DNA from: a virus
Taxonomy: Duplodnaviria; Heunggongvirae; Uroviricota; Caudoviricetes
Direction: 5' to 3' (one strand)
Length of the DNA: 64,000 nucleotides
IMG/VR virus record: IMGVR_UViG_3300020045_008999
Coordinates: 352,001-416,000 of that record
A program made the position numbers and the translations under genes. The notes under the pieces are model-generated. The model saw only the letters and a list, made by a program, of their open reading frames with translations, had not been told where the DNA came from and made no database searches. This document shows, piece after piece, positions 1,538-18,639 of the stretch. The stretch's first letter is position 1. The number at the start of each line of letters is the position of its first letter.

Positions 1538-3214
1538 TTATATACATCGAACTTTTCCGTTTATAAATCCCCAATATTTATATTGCACCGCTTTAATATC
1601 GTCTAGAATATTATTCACATTTTGAATGTGTCTAGTGTCCTTCATTCCACCTTTATCTGAAACTGCAAATTTAAATTCATTACAAGGTATTACTTTAGGT
1701 GAGTTGTAATGGAAAAATTGATTTATATAACTTTCATCGTTTACTGCTGGTTCGTAATTGATCAGTTTATCTGAAATTTGATTATCATACAGTACCTTGC
1801 ACATTTTAAGTACTTGATCGGATTTGCCCCCGAAAAAAGCACCGTAATAGTAAGTTTGTGGTAGTGTGGTATCATGTGGTATATATGCCCTTGAGGCAGG
1901 GTTTCTATCATAATTTTTACACAAACTATCTTTGTTTATAAAATGCTCACCACCCACTAAATCACCCATGAACCAAGACTCATCGAAGTCCAAAAGTATA
2001 TTAGTATCTGCATCAAAATAATAAATGTGATCACCATAGGTATCCATTGATAATATATTTGAAAATTTGGAATTGGTCCCATCTACCCAATTATAATTTT
2101 CAAAGTGTGTTTTTTTGACTAAATATTTTCCATGATCATAATTATGTAAATATTCATCTATTTCTATATCACTGAAAATATTAAATATTATTTTACTATT
2201 GCCTTTATAGAATCTTATAAAATTATTTATAAACCTGATTCCTAGTACTGAGTAACTATTGGTGCATATTAATACGATCGATATGGTGTTAGTTAAGAAA
2301 CTTTTCGCACCGACTTCTTGTACATATTTATAATAGTTATACGCACATACATTTGTGTTTAGATTTTCTAAATTCAAATTATATGGTAGTGTATTAGTGA
2401 AATTGTTTTTAAAAAACATACTTTCATTATTAGTAACCCCCGCATTATGATACATTGCTCGTGAATTCCACTCAGTGATTGGTGTTGTTGACCAATTGAA
2501 ATTCATATTTGGATCACATATAGTATTATATCCACGTTTCCAAGCATTCCAAAGAACTGCCCACATATCAGCACACCAAATTTGTATTTCGTGATATGAT
2601 GGATCCGCAGCTTTTTTCATATTGTTCAATTTAGTAATCTCTATGAATAAATTTTCACAATCAAGATAAACATCATGCCAATATTCTGCATTGATGTTTT
2701 TCATGATATATTGAGCACCTCCACTATTTTGTTGATTTTGCTTAACAATATCTTTGCTTATATCACAAATATCACACATTAGATCTAATACATCTTCACC
2801 CTTAGAAAGTATGTAATCATGCCCTATGTATGATATGGTGTCAGAAACGTACCAGTCATCTGTATTTTCATATTCCAAGGATTTTAGTGACTTAGTGAAT
2901 ACTATATCAGAATCATGATAGATGAGCGTAGTGGATGCTAGACTAGGCATGGAAATGAAATGTTTTTCTAAAAGATGTGGTCTAATTGATGATATATATC
3001 CGGGGTTTAGTCGTGTATCGTCGTAATAAAAAAATTGCACACTTGGGTACCTAAGTTCTAATAAATTCCATTTATTCAAGACACTAGGTACATGTGAGTT
3101 ATCACATATGATATGTATGACATTTTCTGGCAAATGTTCTAATATGCTATTTATTACAACTTCCACTTGCCAAGTATAGTAGTCTATTTTAGGCTGAACA
3201 ATTAAATGTATCAT
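1538..3214 (-). CDS. Two-domain glycosyltransferase: N-terminal GT-A (HPAT/SRGT peptide-O-glycosyltransferase-like) fused to C-terminal GT6 (ABO-like)
   Basis: N-half HDSDIVF (DxD), GGAQY, WCADMWAVLWNAW; C-half FDADTN (DxD), YYYGAFFGG, NDESYINQFF typical of CAZy GT6. Confidence 0.8.
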   Translation of the reverse strand: MIHLIVQPKIDYYTWQVEVVINSILEHLPENVIHIICDNSHVPSVLNKWNLLELRYPSVQFFYYDDTRLNPGYISSIRPHLLEKHFISMPSLASTTLIYHDSDIVFTKSLKSLEYENTDDWYVSDTISYIGHDYILSKGEDVLDLMCDICDISKDIVKQNQQNSGGAQYIMKNINAEYWHDVYLDCENLFIEITKLNNMKKAADPSYHEIQIWCADMWAVLWNAWKRGYNTICDPNMNFNWSTTPITEWNSRAMYHNAGVTNNESMFFKNNFTNTLPYNLNLENLNTNVCAYNYYKYVQEVGAKSFLTNTISIVLICTNSYSVLGIRFINNFIRFYKGNSKIIFNIFSDIEIDEYLHNYDHGKYLVKKTHFENYNWVDGTNSKFSNILSMDTYGDHIYYFDADTNILLDFDESWFMGDLVGGEHFINKDSLCKNYDRNPASRAYIPHDTTLPQTYYYGAFFGGKSDQVLKMCKVLYDNQISDKLINYEPAVNDESYINQFFHYNSPKVIPCNEFKFAVSDKGGMKDTRHIQNVNNILDDIKAVQYKYWGFINGKVRCI

Positions 3215-3232
3215 GATATATTTATATATTTT

Positions 3233-6200
3233 TTATACTGAGCAGATAGTATTTATCGAAATGACACCTATATTATCGATATAACACACTCTTGAACCCT
3301 CAACCTCAGTCCATAGTGATAGTGCTAGATTGTAATATTTATAGTCACCATTAAATGGTGTTATACCATCTAGTTCATACATTACATCACCAGAAGTAAT
3401 TTGATTGTTATTTTGTGTAGCTATTTTACAATCGGTCGTGATAGGGATCATACATATATCAGTTTCGCTAGTAGTTAAATACCCTTGCCCGCTTCGTAAT
3501 GCAGATACTGTTACTGGAGCAGGTTCTGGGCACGTTGTTACCTCAAAAGTACCACCTGGCCAAGTTATGTCATTACCACTAGCTATATCATACATAATTA
3601 TGGCAGTAGTTGAGCATATGTAATGTTTGAATGTGCCATCCAAGTTGTCTTCAACAAGTAACGTGGTTAATGGAACACTCATTAAACTTCCGCCATCTGG
3701 TGTATATCGAACACCTACATTTTCTACTGGTTCACTTCCATCGGTGATCATTGCGTAACAAGTTTCCGAGCCTACGCAAGTATCACAGTAGCATCCACCA
3801 CCCACTTCAAATGTAGCTAAAATGCTATTAGAGATTATTAAAGGATTGTCCGCGCTTATCAATCTAAATGTTGTATTTTGTGTAATATCAAATCCACATC
3901 GAGGGCTTAAATAACTTCCTGGTGTTGAAATCCAAGAAGATCCACCATTATAACTTTCTTCAACAATTATACCGGATGGTACTGGTCCGGTTATCGTGAA
4001 GTACAAACATCCGGATAAGTATGAATCCAAAGTAATTGAGGTTGGTGCCGCAGTAGTTGTACTCGTAGTGCTCGTAGTGCTCGTGGTAGTCGTTGTCGGT
4101 GGCGCAGTGGTTGTACTGGTAGTAGTTGTTATTTCAACTACTGATGCACTCAATATATCGAAATAACAGTTAGGTGGTGTTGTAGTTGTACTAGTAGTTG
4201 TACTAGTAGTAGTTGTACTAGTAGTAGTTGTACTTGGTGGTACCAATGGTGGAGGTATTCCTAGTCTAACCGGTAACGGATCCACTTCAATTATCGATAC
4301 GACATCGGTAAGATCTTTGGTTCCTCTAATTTCATAATTCTTGATCATTTTGTAAATTTGTCCGTATCCATTATCACTTGTTATATTAATATTAATATAT
4401 GGGTCTAAATTGGAATCAATTACAATATGAAAAGGTTCTAGAGTAGTTCGAAATTCTTTTATAGTTTGTACCGGAACATAATCAACTTCTTTCCACTCAG
4501 TGATATTGCGCCAATTGCTGGTGTCTGTCAATGGACTGGCAGCCGGTTGATTTTCAAGTTCAAATGTGTTCCCGGCGAATGTTAATTGAAAGTAAAGATC
4601 TGCATATCTTACGATGTCATTTGTTTTATAATTAACATCGCTTGACCATTTACTAGTGTTTGTATATCTTCGTGGATCCTTAACACGGTTTTTCCCGGGT
4701 AATACTGATTCATATATAAAATTATAATAACTAACTTTATCGCCTGTGTTGTAGGTCTGGAATGGACTCCATTCTTTTTCTGTTTTATATGTAGTTACGT
4801 CAATTGTGAAATAATCTGGTACACTCCCACTTACTGAAAAGTCAACAACAACATCATATACAGTGCTACCGCTATTTATTGGCATTAGATAACACTCGTG
4901 TATGTCAAAATTAATTGGCGACATCGATTCTCTGATATATGATGACTTGGTATCGTAACATTTGTGTACAATTGACGATGTATTGACAAAATCCATCTGT
5001 CCAGTAATATCCATTATTTCGTGTGACATCGGTATTACATTATCTTGTAACCAGTATTTAAGTCCTTGTAATTTAATAAGAACTTCCCTCAATGAGTATG
5101 ATAGAATGTTATTACCATCTTTGTCAGTTATGCGGTAAGCTAAATTGAATAAGTTGGTGTCTTCATAATTGGAATTAGGCATAGTTTGTTTAATATAGTC
5201 ACTCTCATTCCATCCGATCACTGAATTATCGAATATATCTGGTATTTCTACTTTATATAAATCACCAAAAGCGGTAGATGTTGTGTCTATATTTCTATAG
5301 TATTCATATAATTCTAAATCGTTATAACCGAAGTAATTAATTGCGTTTATAATTGCTTTATACGACCCAATATATGGATAAATTTCATGTCGATTGATTA
5401 GTAATTCTTTTCTTTTTTTATTCAAATAGATCCAGTCGATTCCTTGTTCATTGATATCATAGTCTTTAAAAATGTATGTATCGTTTACTGATATATTCTG
5501 GCCAACATTATCCAACTCTAATTTAAACCTAATATCTTCAATTTCGGTTTGTCCGGTTACGGTGAAAGAAGCTATTTCTTTTTCTATTACACGTATTGAT
5601 GTATCAAGGTATAATGTTTCACCGTGATAGTCAGAGATGACATTTGATTCCTTATTCATGTTACCGTTAGTGAAATCGATTATTATGATTCGATTGTATA
5701 ATTCTCGTATTTTGAATATTAAATGATTGTTGTTTGAAATATATTTATCTGACGTGTTTATAGTATCATACAATAATATTGAAATCATTTGACCTACTTT
5801 TAAACCGGTTACTGATCCATCATCATGTGTTAAAAAATTACTTGAACTATTATTGTTCAATTTTAAAATACCATATCCATTTATTACTTCTAAATCTAAT
5901 TGGTTATTAGTATCCGCATTATTTACTATTGTCCAAATAATTTCTTCTTTCTCATATATTTTTAAAATATTAGATTTAACCCCCTCATTAATATCATTAT
6001 GTCCAATGAATAATTCAATTGGTTCTGGTAGGAAACTTAAATTTGTATCACTATCTACAAAATCAAGCTTATGTAAAATTTCTTCAAAAATGGTTTGCTG
6101 GAATTCTGATTTAGTAATTTTATTAATGTCCTTATTGCCAGAACGATTTAGGGTGATTAATGGTAGTGGTTTTTCACCAATGTATGCGAGTGATCCAGAG

Positions 6201-9200
6201 GTACTTAATTGGTCGCCGGATATATCGTATAAAAATATTTCCGGTGTAGTGTCATCTACCCACTTAGTATTGTACAACATTTGAGCATCACCTATGAAAT
6301 TAGCACGTGGCCGTCTTATATAGTCATGTGTATTTAACCATATGTATTCTGGTTGGGTATAATCCGGTGACAAACTACCAAATTGACCATCGACGATTGA
6401 ACTGTTAATATCCGGATTTAACACCAGATTTAAGTTTATGGTGGTTGATAATTCAATTATTCTACTATCAACACTTTGAATACCCATCATAGTATTTCTA
6501 TCAGGGTTGAATATTAATTTAGTAGCGTTATTGGAAAGTGATTTTATTTCTTCTATGTGTCCGGTAACTGAATTGATTACCACAATACTACGCGATCCAT
6601 CCGTTGTGGTTATATAAATATAACCATCATATTGATTCATGTATATATCACCAATATTTGCAATATTTGAAAAATTATTAGTTCCGGTAGAAGTGATTAT
6701 CACATCTGTATTGGTTATTATGTCACCTGTCAGATTGTTGTGTAATACATAATTATTGGTCCCTGAAATTGTAGGGGTTTGTGTTAATGTTCCATTTGAA
6801 ATGTAGTATAAGTAATCTGATCCGAATACATAAACGCGATGATCATAATTATCATATATCATTTCACTTTCAATAAATAATGGCACAATGTAGGTTTCAT
6901 CCAATGCCCTGGTATTGCCATCAATTGAAATTACACCACCGGTCGAATTGATGTACATGTTATTTTCGTACTTATTGAAAATAATATTAACGCATCTGTT
7001 AGTAGTATTGCTCGTGTAGATGTTATTGTAGATATCAATAATTATGAAACCTAAGTCATGTGTTATATAAACATCACCATTGATGGTATTTATTGCCATC
7101 TTGTTTGGTACTATGCTTAATGTTATCGTTTTACTATTGATTATTGTGTTTAGAATTGGATCTACTGTGTACAATTTATTATTGGTTAATACCATCACAT
7201 AACTAGTTACTGAATTATAATAAAGGCACTTGCTATTGTTATTATTTGGTATGTCTATGGTACCAGTTGAGACATTATTAAGTGAATCGATGATTGTTAT
7301 ATTATTACCTAGTACGTATATAGTATTGGAAATTCCCAAATAAATCACATCAACCATATTATATGAATCGATATTATATGTACTCATATCATATGTATTC
7401 CCTGGTGTATATTCTAATAAAAACTCAGATGAGGCGAAGTCATTATTAAATTCACCGGAAAGTACCGTTGGTTCTGGTATAGCACATGCATCCCCCTCAA
7501 ACCCATTATTAAATGCAATAGTGATAAAGGGTGATTGCCAGCAAGAATCCCCGTTGGTGTCCCAAAATGGTCCTTGGTAGCTAAGATTTATAACATGTGG
7601 TTCCAACGATAATATATTATAGTCCTGATTATTGAAAGGGTAGGTGGTGTTATTAACCCCCACGATCATACCCGTCGCAAACCCAGAATTTTCAAAAGAA
7701 ACTTCTGATAAATTAGATAATATAATAGAATTGCTAGTTATTATAGCACCCGAATTTCCTTTATTTTTATGAATTATATTAAACAGGTTATCACCCGGAA
7801 TGTCCAGTTTGCTTGTGGTTACCACTACGTCATTATTCAATGTAGTTTGTTCTTTCGTATCAAAATACAATGCATTATTTATATTTGAGACAATTACACC
7901 ATATTCCATTAATTCACTTTGGTATTTAGTAACCCAATTCGTTAAGGTTTGTTGTACATTCGCGATTGGTGAATTTGTACCTATTTGATATTCTTTACCT
8001 AGTACTCTTATTGATAATGAGCTTCCCATATCTTTGAATATGATTAAAGTATCTTCTATGTAAAAATTAGCAACGGTACCAACTTCTACTTCAAAATCAA
8101 TTGAAACGTTCGGGTAGAATGAGTTTAAACTGATTGTATTGTAATATAATTGATTATTCGAACGTATGGATTTTAATACACAAGTGATTCCTAGTGCATA
8201 TAAGCGTACATAATTTTTACTTAACCAATTTCTTATGGTTTTATCAATTGATCGTTCTAAGTCTAGGATATTAGCGTTATAAATGCCCACAAAGTCTTCT
8301 CTATATGGCATTCCATTTATAGTTATGAGAATTCCATATTCGCTGATGTCGGTAAATACAATATTCGTGTTGGTTTGTTCTGAAATGTTTGTAACTTTCT
8401 CGGTAGTTAATTCTTCTCGAACTGATATAAGACGCTCTATCGAAGTATCTATCGTTGTTATATCTAGGTTATCCAATTTATACTTGACGTCAGCCCAATT
8501 ATCTGAATAGATTAATCTGGACACAATCTTACCATTTAATACTAATAGATCAATATTCAACAAGTTAAAATCACTTTTCCATTTTTCTACAAACGTTGCC
8601 GCAGTTTTGACTGCTGTTGTATCAAATGCATGATTATATGTAAATATGTGCGACGTTAAATACACGTTAGATGAAATGGTTTCGTTGGTCAATGTAGTAT
8701 CCACCGCGATGTAAGTGATGTTACTTGACCAATATTCTTCGTCGGAAGGTGTTATTATAGAATTTGCATATTGAGTGTAGGCTTTGAAACATTGGTATAT
8801 TTTATTATTGAATATAACTTGTGCACCAACTATATAATCAGTGCTGCCAATATTAGAGCTAAATTTCCCAATTTGTGACACATTTATACTATGAGTATTT
8901 AGTATCGAGTCTATTTTAAATGATCTCCCCGGTAATAGTGTTTTCGGAACACCATCTAAGAAATAAACAATATTATCATTGATAACTAACCCACCATAAT
9001 ATATGTTTGGGTTATTTGTTTTCATGGTCACTGTCACCGTTAGGTCCTCTGTTATCTGTTGTATAGGACAAGTGTATTTGTAATTTATTTTATCAAGTAA
9101 TTCATAATTATCAACGGTAACTACCATATTATTTGATTCCGTGCCAATTAGATTCAACTTGCGGCCATTGTATAACATTTCGTAAAAATTAGGCTCGGAC

Positions 9201-9778
9201 CAATTTGATATTAAGTTATTTAGATTTTGGTCGAAGTAATTTAGTACGCTGATATAGTTTACACCGGAAATAACCGTGTTACTATAGTCAACATTGACAT
9301 TATTTGTAGAATATAATAAATTATTTTCATTTGATATGATCATTATTGCACCGCGCTTCGAATTTAAAACGGTATATGTTTGATTAATATTTGAAAATTC
9401 AGCAATACTATTTTTGAACACTACCGACGAACCAATCTTGAATATGTTTTCAATATTTGGTGCATATAACCATTTAGTAAAGTAATTTACATCAGAATTG
9501 GTGGGTTCTATTTTAGAAAGAGTAATTGTTGATAATGATGAACCATTGATGTTGAACCCGTATTCATTAAATAGTTGGAATTTAGAAAGTTGTAAATCGG
9601 TATTTGCTTCGAATTCAAATGATTTGATATTTTCAAACAAATAAAGTCCGATTGTTTTGTGTGTATCACTACTATTTTCGTGAAAAATTAGTTCACCCTC
9701 GTGTTTCTCTGTAATTGTGTTGTATTTGGTATTTATGAAGTTACCTTCTTTATCAAAGAATACGAGATCTTTACTCAT
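3233..9778 (-). CDS. Very large virion structural protein (baseplate/tail-associated) with beta-propeller-like region, CBM5/12-like motifs and Thr-rich tract
   Basis: 2181 aa; late promoter motif at 9799-9807; YIGSYKAIINAINYFGY baseplate-wedge-like segment; WSPFQTYNTGDKVSY and WSSDVNYKTNDIVRY motifs; poly-Thr/Ser tract. Confidence 0.7.
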   Translation of the reverse strand: MSKDLVFFDKEGNFINTKYNTITEKHEGELIFHENSSDTHKTIGLYLFENIKSFEFEANTDLQLSKFQLFNEYGFNINGSSLSTITLSKIEPTNSDVNYFTKWLYAPNIENIFKIGSSVVFKNSIAEFSNINQTYTVLNSKRGAIMIISNENNLLYSTNNVNVDYSNTVISGVNYISVLNYFDQNLNNLISNWSEPNFYEMLYNGRKLNLIGTESNNMVVTVDNYELLDKINYKYTCPIQQITEDLTVTVTMKTNNPNIYYGGLVINDNIVYFLDGVPKTLLPGRSFKIDSILNTHSINVSQIGKFSSNIGSTDYIVGAQVIFNNKIYQCFKAYTQYANSIITPSDEEYWSSNITYIAVDTTLTNETISSNVYLTSHIFTYNHAFDTTAVKTAATFVEKWKSDFNLLNIDLLVLNGKIVSRLIYSDNWADVKYKLDNLDITTIDTSIERLISVREELTTEKVTNISEQTNTNIVFTDISEYGILITINGMPYREDFVGIYNANILDLERSIDKTIRNWLSKNYVRLYALGITCVLKSIRSNNQLYYNTISLNSFYPNVSIDFEVEVGTVANFYIEDTLIIFKDMGSSLSIRVLGKEYQIGTNSPIANVQQTLTNWVTKYQSELMEYGVIVSNINNALYFDTKEQTTLNNDVVVTTSKLDIPGDNLFNIIHKNKGNSGAIITSNSIILSNLSEVSFENSGFATGMIVGVNNTTYPFNNQDYNILSLEPHVINLSYQGPFWDTNGDSCWQSPFITIAFNNGFEGDACAIPEPTVLSGEFNNDFASSEFLLEYTPGNTYDMSTYNIDSYNMVDVIYLGISNTIYVLGNNITIIDSLNNVSTGTIDIPNNNNSKCLYYNSVTSYVMVLTNNKLYTVDPILNTIINSKTITLSIVPNKMAINTINGDVYITHDLGFIIIDIYNNIYTSNTTNRCVNIIFNKYENNMYINSTGGVISIDGNTRALDETYIVPLFIESEMIYDNYDHRVYVFGSDYLYYISNGTLTQTPTISGTNNYVLHNNLTGDIITNTDVIITSTGTNNFSNIANIGDIYMNQYDGYIYITTTDGSRSIVVINSVTGHIEEIKSLSNNATKLIFNPDRNTMMGIQSVDSRIIELSTTINLNLVLNPDINSSIVDGQFGSLSPDYTQPEYIWLNTHDYIRRPRANFIGDAQMLYNTKWVDDTTPEIFLYDISGDQLSTSGSLAYIGEKPLPLITLNRSGNKDINKITKSEFQQTIFEEILHKLDFVDSDTNLSFLPEPIELFIGHNDINEGVKSNILKIYEKEEIIWTIVNNADTNNQLDLEVINGYGILKLNNNSSSNFLTHDDGSVTGLKVGQMISILLYDTINTSDKYISNNNHLIFKIRELYNRIIIIDFTNGNMNKESNVISDYHGETLYLDTSIRVIEKEIASFTVTGQTEIEDIRFKLELDNVGQNISVNDTYIFKDYDINEQGIDWIYLNKKRKELLINRHEIYPYIGSYKAIINAINYFGYNDLELYEYYRNIDTTSTAFGDLYKVEIPDIFDNSVIGWNESDYIKQTMPNSNYEDTNLFNLAYRITDKDGNNILSYSLREVLIKLQGLKYWLQDNVIPMSHEIMDITGQMDFVNTSSIVHKCYDTKSSYIRESMSPINFDIHECYLMPINSGSTVYDVVVDFSVSGSVPDYFTIDVTTYKTEKEWSPFQTYNTGDKVSYYNFIYESVLPGKNRVKDPRRYTNTSKWSSDVNYKTNDIVRYADLYFQLTFAGNTFELENQPAASPLTDTSNWRNITEWKEVDYVPVQTIKEFRTTLEPFHIVIDSNLDPYININITSDNGYGQIYKMIKNYEIRGTKDLTDVVSIIEVDPLPVRLGIPPPLVPPSTTTTSTTTTSTTTSTTTTPPNCYFDILSASVVEITTTTSTTTAPPTTTTTSTTSTTSTTTAAPTSITLDSYLSGCLYFTITGPVPSGIIVEESYNGGSSWISTPGSYLSPRCGFDITQNTTFRLISADNPLIISNSILATFEVGGGCYCDTCVGSETCYAMITDGSEPVENVGVRYTPDGGSLMSVPLTTLLVEDNLDGTFKHYICSTTAIIMYDIASGNDITWPGGTFEVTTCPEPAPVTVSALRSGQGYLTTSETDICMIPITTDCKIATQNNNQITSGDVMYELDGITPFNGDYKYYNLALSLWTEVEGSRVCYIDNIGVISINTICSV
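4051..4235 (-). repeat. Low-complexity tandem repeats encoding mucin-like Thr/Ser-rich linker (STTTTSTTTT..., TTTTSTTTAPPTTTT)
   Basis: Repeated gtagtagttgtacta and ctcgtagtg units on + strand. Confidence 0.9.
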
Positions 9779-13740: not shown

Positions 13741-14355
13741 TTATATATAACCCCCAATGAATGGTGGGTCAATTGTGAAGTTACTATTGATGTATTCATC
13801 ATTGAAGAAGTCACTTACGAATTTTGCAGTCACATCTTTCCAGATTTCATTACTTGACCAGTCTAAATCGATCCCGCTCACACCTCTTAATTGTGCATTT
13901 TGGAATGTTACTCTACGTAGTACAACACCTTTTTTATCATGTTGATTAACAATTATAGTACCAATTATATCGGATTTGTAATGTAATGTTCCGTCCTGAG
14001 AATTCCATACTAAATCATACCATGCTTTTACAACGTTCCAGGTTTCCATAGAACCAGAATCATTTACGTTCACATTGAACTTAATATCAAACTCAACGTG
14101 AGTTTGGTCTGGCATGCTTAGAAACGCTCTTGTAGAGTATTTATATCTCTGATCAACGATAGAGATATCTTCTGTTAACGCTAGTGATACACTCAATGCT
14201 TGTTGTAGCATCATAACTGGATCATGTCCTTGTGCTTGTAATATTAATGGTAATATAAAAGTAATCTCAAACAGGTTTAAGAATACTGGCTCCTGAGGTT
14301 TTGTGCCTGGTCCGCCGCTATCGTTCATCGACAAATTAGAGAAGTGTGGTAGCAT
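13741..14355 (-). CDS. gp19: Tail tube protein, T4 gp19-like
   Basis: EPVFLNLFEITF, WYDLVWN, YKSD...GTIIVNQHDKKG, LDWSS, F.SDFF; close to the sheath gene. Confidence 0.8.
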   Translation of the reverse strand: MLPHFSNLSMNDSGGPGTKPQEPVFLNLFEITFILPLILQAQGHDPVMMLQQALSVSLALTEDISIVDQRYKYSTRAFLSMPDQTHVEFDIKFNVNVNDSGSMETWNVVKAWYDLVWNSQDGTLHYKSDIIGTIIVNQHDKKGVVLRRVTFQNAQLRGVSGIDLDWSSNEIWKDVTAKFVSDFFNDEYINSNFTIDPPFIGGYI

Positions 14356-15153: not shown

Positions 15154-18100
15154 TTATTGTATTCTAAATCCACTTGATTGAATAGCACCAGTTCTGAGTA
15201 TAGTAACTTCATTTACAATTACTGCTAAATTCTTAGTAATTTCTACGAATGTACTTAAAACACCCATTTGGTTATCAATTAATTCGTCAGTGTTGTTTTC
15301 ATCATCACATTTATTGAAGTATGTATAAAGTCCACCTTTGTTAACATAAGTTCCACATATTATATCGGCTCTCAGTTTAATTTCCGCTCTAACTTCTGGT
15401 GTATTTGTTTTCCATTGGAAATCTAATAGCATCGCAGCTAGATCTCTCTCTAACTCAATAAGCGTTTCACGAGAATGTATAAATGAAAGTGAAGATCTGT
15501 ATAATGTCAGTGCGGTATTTTCCGTTTCGATTACATAACCTCTGTTTCTTTTGAATACAATTGGATTCATTTGTGCAATGTTTAAGAATTCAATATCTTC
15601 ATCTGATAACAATTCTTCTACCCCAGCGATTCCCGTGATTCTTCCATTCGTAATACCGGCAGCCACCGTATATGGTGTGATTGTAGATACATTAGAATTC
15701 GATTTTCTTAGGTAAGTACTCGCTACGAACATTGCTGGTGGTACATCTAATGGACGTCCATTGTCATCTACTGTTAAATATGGTAGAAAGTAACCAGCCG
15801 CTGATACACCATCACCTTCGGCAAATGAATATAAAAATGATGGACTAGATTCTGGATTACCACCTTTGGCAACATATTCCATTTGTAAAACCCCCTCATC
15901 ATTTGTAAATGATGGAGAAGATGAATGTTTGAACGATTTAAGAGACGGCATGTTTATAAATCCAAACACATCTAATCTTTTACCACATATATCAACCAAT
16001 TGTTGTTTAGAAAAATCAGTTAATCCAAGACCAAAACCATCTACTAAATATCTGAAATCAATAGCTTCTTTATTAGTAATCGCTTTGAATAAAGGTGTTC
16101 CTTTAGAAACAAGATTCAATAATGCATTTTGGCGAGATTCAGTTCCATCAGGCATTGATTCAGATCTAACTCTAAAACCTTTTAATGTAATACCATTATA
16201 TGCACCAACATAGTCTTCTAATTTAGTAAATCTAGTTGTTTGTAAATCACCATTGTAATCTGTTTTTTTAATACCACCATCAGTTACTATTTCTACTAAA
16301 GTGTTATCGCCGCTGTATAATCTTTTTGATAGTATTCTTACCATTCTACGTGGTTCTCTATCAGCATCGTAGTCACTACTAGTCAACCAAGTTGATTCCC
16401 AATCAGACTCTAAGAAGTCGCCAACTTTTACCTCAGTATATCTTGCGGCATTTACCAATATTTTATTAGAAATTTGGTCATAGTTATTTGGCACTTCGAT
16501 TTCAACAGTTTGTTTAAAATTAGATTTATTTGAAGTTACTGTAATTGTGTTAGTTACAGTGGATGTTGTATAAGTTCCACCCTCAACCGTTTTGAAATTA
16601 GCAACCATCCCGGATACGGTATCGAACATTTCTAAATATACTTCATTAAGACCATCTTTGAAGTAATCGCCGCTATTGATGACACCTTGTTGAAAATTAA
16701 CACTGAAATCCGACCACGCTGATACTACACCATTTGTGGTAGTAGCTACTGAATTGGTTTCCGATAACATAGATGTTCCTAGAATCATCTCATTGTCTAA
16801 TTTGTAAACGATTAGGTTACCTGCTAAAACATAACTAAGGTTCGCTGCTGGTAAGTTAGTAACAATAGTTACCGACTTATTGTTTATAGTATTCGTAGTG
16901 ATATTCTTAACACTCATTGATGAGAATAAAGCTTTGTCGAATGCTGTGTTTAATACAATAGCTGCTTTCGAGCTATTGTTTGAATTTACAAGACTTAGTA
17001 AATAGTTAAAAGCTTTTAGTTTTCTATATTTCGCATAATCAGCGGTTGTAATAGAACCTGATGTATTTAAAAATTCAATTTTAAGCTCAGCACTTGCCAC
17101 AGATCCTACATTAGTGATTGTGTAATCCGTACCTAATATTAGATCGACGAATCCAGTAGTGTTAGTTACCGTAATATCTTTGAACGAATTTGGATTTAGT
17201 ATCATTGCACCATCGATAACTGAAAATTCTAATGTTGAAAGAACAATATCAGTAGCGTCAACTTGTGGTAAAGTTGTAAGTCCAACTCCACCAACCTGAG
17301 AAATTACACCGGCTGCATTTAATTTATATGCATATTTGTATGATGCGGTTGCACCAACACTTTCTGGGAAACTTGCAGTACCACCAGTAAATGTGAATGT
17401 TTTAGATTCAAATTCAACTAAATTTTCACCTATAATTGCAAATGCATCTGGTGCACTAGTAAAGGCTACTGATACGGATGCAGTTGCACCAGTATAAACA
17501 CTTGTTAGTCCATCTACATATCCCTCGGCATAGAATCCAGTTCTATTAGTTGTTGTTGGTTCAGCATGTGCAGTAGCACCAATTGTAAATACGTTACCCA
17601 CCCTATCAAGAAGCGTATTTTCATAAACAATATCTTCAACTATTATTTCATTATATGATAAGAAATTAAATGCGGTAGCACCAGATCCTACGATTGAATT
17701 ACCAATTAAGTCAATTTTATTATTTTGAACTTCGGTTTCGAATAAATCACTATTAAATGCACAGAATATACCAGTTTTATCGGTATCTCTGTTCAATACA
17801 GTCTCTATGAATACATTAGTATCATTTGAGTTTCTGAAGTATGGGATTAATGATAGTCCTTCGTAAAACCCTAAATTATTCACTAAAGAATCATTTGCGA
17901 AGTTGTAAATTTGATCTTTTTTCAATCCGGATGTGTTGAAATATCTAGACCATTTCGCATCAGTTGATAATGTTGCATAATCAGACCACTCACCACCAAT
18001 TATCATTACATCTACCATGAAATCAGATGCCCAATCTGCTTGATTTAAATAAGTTGGTAATTTATCAACAGACCCGTACCATTCGAGTAGAGTTCTATCG

Positions 18101-18639
18101 TATCCGGTTATTTTAGATTTGAATATAAACACAGTAGCGAATTTATCACTTAAATTTGTTAGATTTAAGACTCTATTATCATCACCTACTTGACTGGCAT
18201 CCAAATTGACTAAATTAATGAAGGCATCGGTATCTCTTTTCCAAAAACCAGTAGTATCAAAGAATTTTCTATAGGCACCACTCCTAGTAATATCATTACT
18301 AAAAATAGCTGATGTTGAAAGTGATTTATAATCAATTATATCTAGATTATCGTCAGTTAGTAATAGATTTATAGCATAAACTGGACTAGACTCTATTAAT
18401 TTACCAATGGTTCTGTGGAAAAAAGATCCTTTTCTTTCTAAATTTCTATCAATAGTTCCAAATATTTTATCAACGTCTCCGCTATTTGTTATTAATACTG
18501 GTGTGTTAACCGGTCCTTTTTTAGAAAACCCAATAACCATGGTTGAAAGTCCTTCAACAGTTGGACTAGATAACACTGAGTCATCTATCTCAACGCTAAA
18601 TATGCCTGGTCTTTTATACTTTCCAATTTGAATTGCCAT
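15154..18639 (-). CDS. gp18: Contractile tail sheath protein, T4 gp18-like (enlarged)
   Basis: KRPGIFSVEID, GFSKKGPVNTPV, AGITNGRI, MNPIVFKRNRG, CDDENNTDELIDN; 1161 aa. Confidence 0.92.
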   Translation of the reverse strand: MAIQIGKYKRPGIFSVEIDDSVLSSPTVEGLSTMVIGFSKKGPVNTPVLITNSGDVDKIFGTIDRNLERKGSFFHRTIGKLIESSPVYAINLLLTDDNLDIIDYKSLSTSAIFSNDITRSGAYRKFFDTTGFWKRDTDAFINLVNLDASQVGDDNRVLNLTNLSDKFATVFIFKSKITGYDRTLLEWYGSVDKLPTYLNQADWASDFMVDVMIIGGEWSDYATLSTDAKWSRYFNTSGLKKDQIYNFANDSLVNNLGFYEGLSLIPYFRNSNDTNVFIETVLNRDTDKTGIFCAFNSDLFETEVQNNKIDLIGNSIVGSGATAFNFLSYNEIIVEDIVYENTLLDRVGNVFTIGATAHAEPTTTNRTGFYAEGYVDGLTSVYTGATASVSVAFTSAPDAFAIIGENLVEFESKTFTFTGGTASFPESVGATASYKYAYKLNAAGVISQVGGVGLTTLPQVDATDIVLSTLEFSVIDGAMILNPNSFKDITVTNTTGFVDLILGTDYTITNVGSVASAELKIEFLNTSGSITTADYAKYRKLKAFNYLLSLVNSNNSSKAAIVLNTAFDKALFSSMSVKNITTNTINNKSVTIVTNLPAANLSYVLAGNLIVYKLDNEMILGTSMLSETNSVATTTNGVVSAWSDFSVNFQQGVINSGDYFKDGLNEVYLEMFDTVSGMVANFKTVEGGTYTTSTVTNTITVTSNKSNFKQTVEIEVPNNYDQISNKILVNAARYTEVKVGDFLESDWESTWLTSSDYDADREPRRMVRILSKRLYSGDNTLVEIVTDGGIKKTDYNGDLQTTRFTKLEDYVGAYNGITLKGFRVRSESMPDGTESRQNALLNLVSKGTPLFKAITNKEAIDFRYLVDGFGLGLTDFSKQQLVDICGKRLDVFGFINMPSLKSFKHSSSPSFTNDEGVLQMEYVAKGGNPESSPSFLYSFAEGDGVSAAGYFLPYLTVDDNGRPLDVPPAMFVASTYLRKSNSNVSTITPYTVAAGITNGRITGIAGVEELLSDEDIEFLNIAQMNPIVFKRNRGYVIETENTALTLYRSSLSFIHSRETLIELERDLAAMLLDFQWKTNTPEVRAEIKLRADIICGTYVNKGGLYTYFNKCDDENNTDELIDNQMGVLSTFVEITKNLAVIVNEVTILRTGAIQSSGFRIQ

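Follow-up and report, generated by a model that had tools for sequence, protein, structure and literature searches.

Two neighbouring minus-strand genes, one for a long protein with threonine-rich tracts and one for a fused two-domain glycosyltransferase (GT), are analysed here as a candidate system for O-glycosylation of a phage's own particle. They lie at one end of a 64,000-nucleotide stretch of DNA (the window; positions 352001-416000 of the IMG/VR virus record IMGVR_UViG_3300020045_008999) with a GC content of ~31%. An original prediction, made from the sequence of the window, had proposed that one polypeptide primes Ser/Thr residues of the upstream protein and then extends the first sugar. 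The pair is laid out as follows.

3233-9778, minus strand: P0002, open reading frame (ORF) of 2181 amino acids (aa) and proposed acceptor, ending in a TAA stop
3215-3232, minus strand: 18-nt spacer between the P0002 TAA and P0001, both ORFs lying in the same frame
1538-3214, minus strand: P0001, fused dual GT of 558 aa, encoded by a gene present in a single copy in the genome
1521-1558, minus strand: perfect hairpin of 17 bp that spans the P0001 stop (folding energy -25 kcal/mol, z -8.5)

The two-domain GT, 18 nt downstream of the long ORF and on the same strand, is thus found where the original prediction had placed it. The spacer consists of six codons after the TAA and contains TATAAATA, in a copy that ends 4 nt (TATC) before the ATG of the GT gene. 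Two other interpretations were considered and rejected. P0002 and P0001 do not form a single read-through protein, given the TAA stop and the full-length fused GT homologues that begin at the same Met. Nor does TATAAATA support a T4-type late promoter for the 2181-aa ORF: it is weakly enriched in the window (35 copies, with 22.6 +/- 5.3 expected) and has zero copies upstream of that ORF. The hairpin probably terminates transcription from both sides, serving the convergent ORF 842-1495 as well. Since it spans the P0001 stop and faces a convergent gene, the P0002-P0001 pair would close a transcription unit.

The fused enzyme and its two domains

The 558-aa protein divides into two halves, each with its own set of catalytic motifs.

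2300-3214, minus strand: N-terminal domain (N-domain), aa 1-305, proposed Thr-priming enzyme (phrog_4417; predicted GT8-like retaining GT-A fold)
2906-2914, minus strand: N-domain DxD, D101-S-D103 (YHDSDI, aa 99-104), invariant in the family
1541-2299, minus strand: GT6 domain, aa 306-558, proposed extender (PF03414, phrog_3317, BoGT6a)
2006-2014, minus strand: GT6 DxD, D401-A-D403 (FDADT, aa 400-404), aligned with FNANL (NxN) of the metal-independent BoGT6a
1826-1852, minus strand: GT6 donor-site motif YYYGAFFGG (YYMGAFFGG in GTB), with Ala at the position of GTB Ala268
1733-1735, minus strand: Glu494 in NDESY, aligned with the catalytic Glu of HDES (E303 of GTA/GTB)

By its sequence, namely the Pfam threshold, the catalytic Glu, the donor loop and the DxD, the C-terminal half is a member of the GT6 family, as had been proposed. 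It matches PF03414 with 44.8 bits (cut-off 25; E 9e-12) over profile positions 197-286 of 313, and also phrog_3317, annotated as 'glycosyltransferase'. Among proteins of solved structure in the PDB, BoGT6a (4ayj) aligns to aa 311-508 (~200 aa) with an E-value of 5e-11 and ABO transferase chains match at 2e-8, the BoGT6a and ABO matches being in the range 1e-10 to 1e-8; ABO and alpha-1,3-galactosyltransferase (alpha-3-GalT) chains align across the catalytic core. The DxD, NDESY and the donor loop are all invariant in 16 fused homologues. In ABO enzymology, Ala (B) or Gly (A) at GTB position 268 separates Gal from GalNAc donors, and the Ala found at this position would therefore point to a Gal donor for the GT6 half.

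The N-domain is more remote from characterized enzymes. The original prediction had listed a DxD, GGAQY and WCADMWA in it, and all are present, GGAQY at aa 165-169 and WCADMWA at aa 213-219; an HNAG...K segment is invariant, like the DxD. The only family matched is phrog_4417, annotated as 'unknown function' (PHROG E 7e-62) and comprising 983 clusters at 50% identity. No Pfam family is matched by the N-domain, or by its 52 relatives apart from weak Stealth_CR2 hits, and Glyco_transf_8 in particular gives no match for any of them at E<=1. An AlphaFold2 (AF2) model built from an alignment of the 52 sequences (pLDDT 94.9) has a GT-A fold, which in comparisons by VIA resembles LgtC (Z 15.0; root-mean-square deviation 3.5, 234 residues aligned), glycogenin (14.7), the Skp1 alpha-galactosyltransferase (alpha-GalT; 14.3), WbbM (13.9), UGGT (13.8), GlyE (13.5), LARGE1 (13.1), BoGT6a (12.7) and PBCV-1 A64R (11.1). 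Foldseek agrees (E 1e-7 to 1e-5, probability 1.00). As modelled, the N-domain is thus a retaining-type GT-A fold nearest to GT8 enzymes. Retaining transferases of GT8 type are the solved structures closest to it, and several of them (glycogenin, Skp1 alpha-GalT, GlyE and UGGT) act on glycoproteins.

Two other affiliations of the N-domain were examined. Its resemblance by eye to the plant peptide O-glycosyltransferases HPAT/SRGT, as first suggested, was not borne out: the HPAT profile PF23452 has no match at E<=10 in the whole genome, and hmmscan of the N-domain and its relatives gives none. What is left is a lead from the Atlas, where HPAT is found on 10% of the members of neighbouring viral clusters and a green-algal HPAT cluster is reached with a TM of 0.76. 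GT27 (ppGalNAc-T) does not appear among the 50 best matches of either Foldseek or VIA, an absence from these lists that does not exclude a relationship.

The fusion is recurrent. Fifteen full-length fused N+GT6 homologues, with 39-77% identity, keep both sets of catalytic residues. In the IMG/VR loci the two are mostly adjacent separate genes in the order N then GT6, reversed in L039 and L078. When longer proteins were searched for, the N-domain always stood at the N-terminus, with GT6, GT2 (sometimes with PF04488), GT11, GT7C, a methyltransferase or a radical SAM/SPASM enzyme as its partner; in unfused loci, too, a methyltransferase or radical SAM gene comes next after the N-domain gene. Among the fusion proteins (P0127, P0151, P0182, P0188 and others), many of 658-665 aa consist of the N-domain and radical SAM/SPASM. 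A constant first module followed by exchangeable tailoring modules fits an initiator with variable extenders.

Linkage of the N-domain gene to poly-Thr tracts

The proposed acceptor, P0002, has the Thr/Ser/Pro tracts and the Cys-rich C-terminus that the original prediction described.

4232-9772, minus strand: conserved core, aa 3-1849, common to orthologues that end there
4709-4774, minus strand: best of three CBM5/12 carbohydrate-binding repeats, aa 1669-1690 (PF02839, 34.3 bits, cut-off 26.2)
4172-4240, minus strand: Thr/Ser/Pro tract 1, aa 1847-1869
4037-4129, minus strand: Thr/Ser/Pro tract 2, aa 1884-1914
3236-4036, minus strand: C-terminal module of 267 aa with 12 Cys

Such tracts are rare in this genome, being found in 2 of the 1036 non-nested ORFs, one of which lies directly upstream of the sole GT gene; with tracts this scarce and the enzyme in a single copy, the pairing goes beyond chance. 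The second poly-Thr protein (211 aa; genome positions 290387-291022, minus strand, ~61 kb before the start of the window) is encoded downstream of a 2314-aa ORF, and its C-terminal half is made of TTTSTTTSTTT followed by (M/V/I)(V/I)PEEPE repeats up to the end. It is probably a second substrate of the enzyme.

Co-occurrence of the GT with Thr-rich proteins in related phages had been set beforehand as a test, and the linkage found is strong. Two sets of loci were used, a metagenome set of 80 loci picked by N-domain peptides and an IMG/VR set of 76 loci picked by GT6 peptides. In the metagenome set, a poly-Thr ORF occupies the position immediately upstream of the N-domain gene (-1) in 45 of 76 cases, position -2 in 22 of 66 and position -3 in 11 of 52, compared with 3 of 518 genes downstream and 26 of 512 genes more than three genes away (odds ratio of 27 for -1 against this last group, p 1e-28). 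When enzymes are clustered at 70% identity, the pattern is kept in 13 of the 20 clusters. In the IMG/VR set, 24 of 42 loci (9 of 17 clusters) have a poly-Thr ORF no more than three genes from the N-domain gene. Such an ORF stays with the N-domain gene where this gene and GT6 are apart (L036, L041 and L065), and it is present in only 2 of 34 GT6-only loci. The linkage therefore tracks the N-domain gene and not GT6, which, together with the recurrence of the N-domain beside varied tailoring enzymes, fits a division of labour in which the N-domain would prime and GT6 would extend. Of two fused loci that are more distantly related, L096 has no poly-Thr ORF and L095 has one five genes upstream.

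The poly-Thr neighbours are themselves diverse. BLAST sorts them, with their tracts masked, into 28 or more families, nine or more of which occur at position -1; among them are a subtilisin-type protease and proteins encoded next to tail-fibre proteins. The protease gene (L148:6741-8636), situated between tail-fibre and N-domain genes, encodes a subtilisin-type (S8) protease with poly-Thr linkers and a small Cys-containing end domain.

The association extends to deposited phages. All nine that were inspected encode Thr runs just ahead of the homologue on its own strand, and the stretches examined contain no others, as listed here.

phiFL1A (Enterococcus): Thr runs in the major tail and major head proteins
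PLE3 (Lactobacillus): Thr runs in gp07, gp08 and gp14
bIL285 (Lactococcus): Thr run in the tail protein
P1046 (Lactococcus): Thr runs in the capsid and in the upstream protein
phiCTP1: Thr runs in the tube and in head gp11
Semele: Thr runs in gp074 and gp075
RQ1: Thr run in the tail protein and an overlapping poly-Thr frame
Planchet: Thr run in the tail protein and an unannotated poly-Thr frame after the capsid gene
Chryseobacterium MA9V-3: Thr runs in two upstream ORFs

In the siphophages, the homologue sits between head and tail genes, and the capsid and tail-tube products end in Thr runs. In Staphylococcus phage RQ1 (L081:3229-3931) the major tail protein gene is followed by an overlapping frame with a long poly-Thr, and in Enterococcus phage Planchet (L082:3772-4000) the major capsid gene is followed by an unannotated frame of the same kind. 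A programmed frameshift that gives the Thr tag to only some of the subunits may account for these frames.

Orthologues of P0002 offer a comparison on a single backbone. A T4-type portal, a large terminase and a clamp loader are encoded in the source record (596,785 bp, 98% complete according to CheckV). Within the phage collection, this record is most closely related to the 'uncultured phage' genomes LR756501-04 and LR745206 (634-735 kb) and more remotely to Lak, Tenacibaculum, Chryseobacterium and Flavobacterium phages; P0002 has orthologues in the former and partial ones in the latter. We take the LR756501-04/LR745206 group to be the huge phages of Al-Shayeb et al. 2020, with Bacteroidota as predicted hosts. 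The orthologues in LR756502 and LR745206 (1891 and 1910 aa, 42% identity) align with aa 3-1849 and 3-1843 of P0002 and then stop within two residues, exactly where Thr tract 1 (aa 1847) starts; LR756504 and LR756501 have shorter relatives. No N-domain homologue is found in the LR756501, LR756502, LR756504 and LR745206 genomes. A DNA pattern for Thr-Thr-Thr-(Thr/Ser)-Thr-Thr-Thr, validated on the genome under study (11 matches, all inside the two known ORFs), gives 1, 0, 0 and 0 matches in these four. Conversely, metagenome locus L131 encodes a P0002 orthologue (42% identity over aa 320-1823) with eight Thr tracts and a short distal domain; 100 nt separate the 3' end of the orthologue from a convergently oriented N-domain gene. 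Four huge phages lacking both and L131 having both argue that, on one backbone, the enzyme and the Thr-rich extension appear and disappear jointly. A distant GT6-like gene with 28% identity is present in LR756502.1 (444204-444815; L090) and LR745206.1 (425992-426576; L091), ~215-260 kb from the P0002 orthologue.

The remainder of P0002 is less informative. It has no PHROG match and no PDB relative, and none of the poly-Thr proteins encoded in the viral loci is matched by BLAST. The Cys-rich module has no homologue among the compared loci and nothing in the Atlas, and its AF2 model, computed from a single sequence, is unusable (pLDDT 34.5). A tail sheath gene (15154-18639, minus strand) and a tail tube gene (13741-14355, minus strand) lie 4.5-5.4 kb upstream of the P0002 start on the same strand, and P0002 would be a tail-region or tail-appendage protein solely on account of this position and its CBM5/12 repeats.

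A proposed two-step pathway and its alternatives

Taken together, these data make it likely that the 558-aa protein is a two-step protein O-glycosyltransferase acting on the poly-Thr tracts of the phage itself, and the proposal that one polypeptide primes and then extends has gained support from the linkage that follows the N-domain gene and from the fusion of the N-domain to varied glycan-tailoring enzymes. With no signal peptide or membrane segment, the enzyme would be soluble and act in the cytoplasm on newly made protein. The N-domain, Mn-dependent and retaining, would move a first sugar from a nucleotide sugar to Thr/Ser hydroxyls of the P0002 tracts, after which the GT6 domain would add an alpha-linked Gal, probably from UDP-Gal, onto this first sugar. 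The product would be a stiff, protease-resistant and hydrophilic mucin-like stalk between the CBM5/12-bearing core and the distal Cys-rich module, with a possible benefit in stiffening, in shielding from proteases or antibodies, or in adhesion.

Several points weigh against this pathway. Characterized GT6 enzymes use beta-Gal acceptors of free glycans and not a peptide-linked monosaccharide. The nearest folds of the N-domain include enzymes of lipopolysaccharide (LPS) and O-antigen synthesis (LgtC and WbbM), so that the fold leaves the acceptor unfixed. The N+GT6 clade L005-L014 lacks a poly-Thr ORF within 10 kb, as do several single loci, the related loci behind the linkage counts are not fully independent samples, and the virion placement and late expression of P0002 are putative. 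In the L005-L014 clade, a 1191-aa protein with collagen-like Gly-Thr-Ser/Gly-Ser-Ser triplets is encoded ~3 kb downstream (L005:14416-17991; also L034:3805-7380), and it is a speculative alternative acceptor there.

The same folds and loci enter into the strongest competing explanation, by which the enzyme glycosylates a target other than phage proteins (a host envelope polysaccharide, LPS, teichoic acid or phage DNA) and lies close to poly-Thr ORFs because both belong to a shared variable tail-fibre region. LgtC and WbbM among the best structural neighbours, N+GT6 loci devoid of poly-Thr ORFs and a GtrB-like GT2 in one locus are all in keeping with it. A shared variable region would not readily produce a position that is exact and directional (59% at -1 versus 0.6% downstream), nor a small siphophage gene lodged between capsid and tail-tube genes with Thr-run ends, nor an enzyme whose presence or absence tracks the Thr tract in P0002 orthologues. 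The protein also begins with the first Rossmann strand and has neither a signal peptide nor a membrane segment. As to the concern that the N-domain might group with LPS- or DNA-modifying enzymes, LPS enzymes are among its GT8-type neighbours alongside enzymes of protein-bound glycans, and no DNA glycosyltransferase is found among the 50 best folds. A target other than phage proteins is on balance unlikely.

A little less likely still is that the tracts are modified by another chemistry, either because the N-domain transfers a sugar-1-phosphate, as Stealth and GlcNAc-1-phosphotransferase enzymes do, or because GT6 acts independently on another glycan. Weak Stealth_CR2 matches in 2 of the 52 family members (E 0.006) and VIA Z values of 10.3-10.5 to GlcNAc-1-phosphotransferase and CpsY point in this direction, but GT8-type transferases score clearly higher (Z 13-15 versus ~10), the DxD and the distal invariant His-x-x-Gly fit a GT8-like metal binding, and the conserved order of N-domain then partner suggests sequential action on one product. 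Finally, that the Thr tracts are plain flexible linkers, unmodified or host-modified, and the fused GT an accessory gene of unrelated role is highly improbable: Thr/Pro linkers are common in modular secreted enzymes, and one poly-Thr neighbour is indeed a subtilisin-type protease with such a linker, but the linkage of N-domain genes to poly-Thr ORFs, the near absence of such tracts from genomes without the enzyme and, as a matter of general knowledge, the assembly of phage proteins in the cytoplasm, beyond the reach of periplasmic host O-glycosylation, all speak against it.

Known systems and the meaning for phage biology

The two-step O-glycosyltransferase proposed here has partial parallels in several known systems. 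With GT6 enzymes (BoGT6a, human ABO GTA/GTB and bovine alpha-1,3-GalT), the C-terminal half shares ~200 aligned aa, the catalytic Glu, the YYxGxFFGG loop and the GTB-like Ala. It differs in its ~25-30% identity, in having a DxD, as do the animal enzymes, instead of the NxN of BoGT6a, in its fusion to another GT and in its likely acceptor, a peptide-linked sugar and not the H-antigen. With GT8-type enzymes (LgtC, glycogenin, Skp1 alpha-GalT and pneumococcal GlyE), the N-domain shares Z values of 13.5-15 over 215-234 aligned residues and the DxD, and several of them modify proteins or protein-bound glycans in the cytoplasm; it differs in its 8-10% identity and lack of a Pfam GT8 match, and forms a separate sequence family, phrog_4417. 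HPAT (GT95, PF23452) and SGT1 (GT96) are likewise peptide O-glycosyltransferases for repetitive Ser/Hyp-rich proteins, whereas here the acceptor would be Thr and the enzyme soluble instead of a Golgi membrane protein. In the streptococcal serine-rich-repeat adhesins (GtfA/B, then GlyE and others), stepwise cytoplasmic O-glycosylation also relies on an initiator and variable extenders, and GlyE is among the top fold matches; these are, however, cellular adhesins exported by accessory Sec, and their initiator is a GT-B enzyme. Chlorovirus PBCV-1 A064R is a virus-encoded multi-domain transferase acting on the virus's own major capsid protein (GT domain 2p6w, Z 11.1), but its virus infects eukaryotes, the glycans are N-linked and atypical, and a poly-Thr acceptor is absent.

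The closest biological precedent is found in mycobacteriophages. These reportedly encode glycosyltransferases beside structural genes, with glycans on the C-terminal ends of capsid and tail-tube subunits, and there is said to be little evidence of glycosylation outside actinophages; to our knowledge, mycobacteriophages are so far the only phages whose particles have been shown to be glycosylated. Their enzymes presumably differ from those described here. Like that system, the present one has phage-encoded GTs beside structural genes, and the glycan sites are the very places where the Firmicutes phages carry Thr runs. It differs in its carriers (a Bacteroidota-type huge phage, aquatic phages and Firmicutes phages) and in having a recognizable poly-Thr tag or linker as acceptor. 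Mycobacteriophage virion O-glycosylation was the subject of Freeman et al. 2023 (Cell Host Microbe 31:1216), as cited in PMC12894461 and PMC12582341. A full-text search, confined to one literature library, found no paper linking the phrog_4417 family, poly-Thr tags and phage glycosylation.

Judged from sequence, the phages analysed here probably coat their own particles with sugar. Beyond the single locus, it is quite possible, if more tentative, that phrog_4417 acts as the shared initiator in a widespread pathway, so far undescribed, by which Firmicutes, Bacteroidota and aquatic phages decorate poly-Thr tags on their capsid, tail-tube and fibre proteins with mucin-like O-glycans, exchangeable partners deciding the glycan. 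Because cultured carriers exist, the idea is directly testable. If it is true, a family of 983 clusters now annotated as 'unknown function' would gain one, and virion proteins that carry sugar could be predicted from a Thr run next to the gene. Partners of the GT11 fucosyltransferase, GT7 beta-GalT and GT6 types would allow histo-blood-group-like epitopes on virions. Virion glycosylation would then extend to phages of Enterococcus, Staphylococcus, Lactococcus and Lactobacillus, which matter as therapeutic agents or as a threat to dairy production, and to the huge phages of Bacteroidota, with consequences for antibody recognition, protease resistance, mucus adherence and host binding, all of which virion glycans affect.

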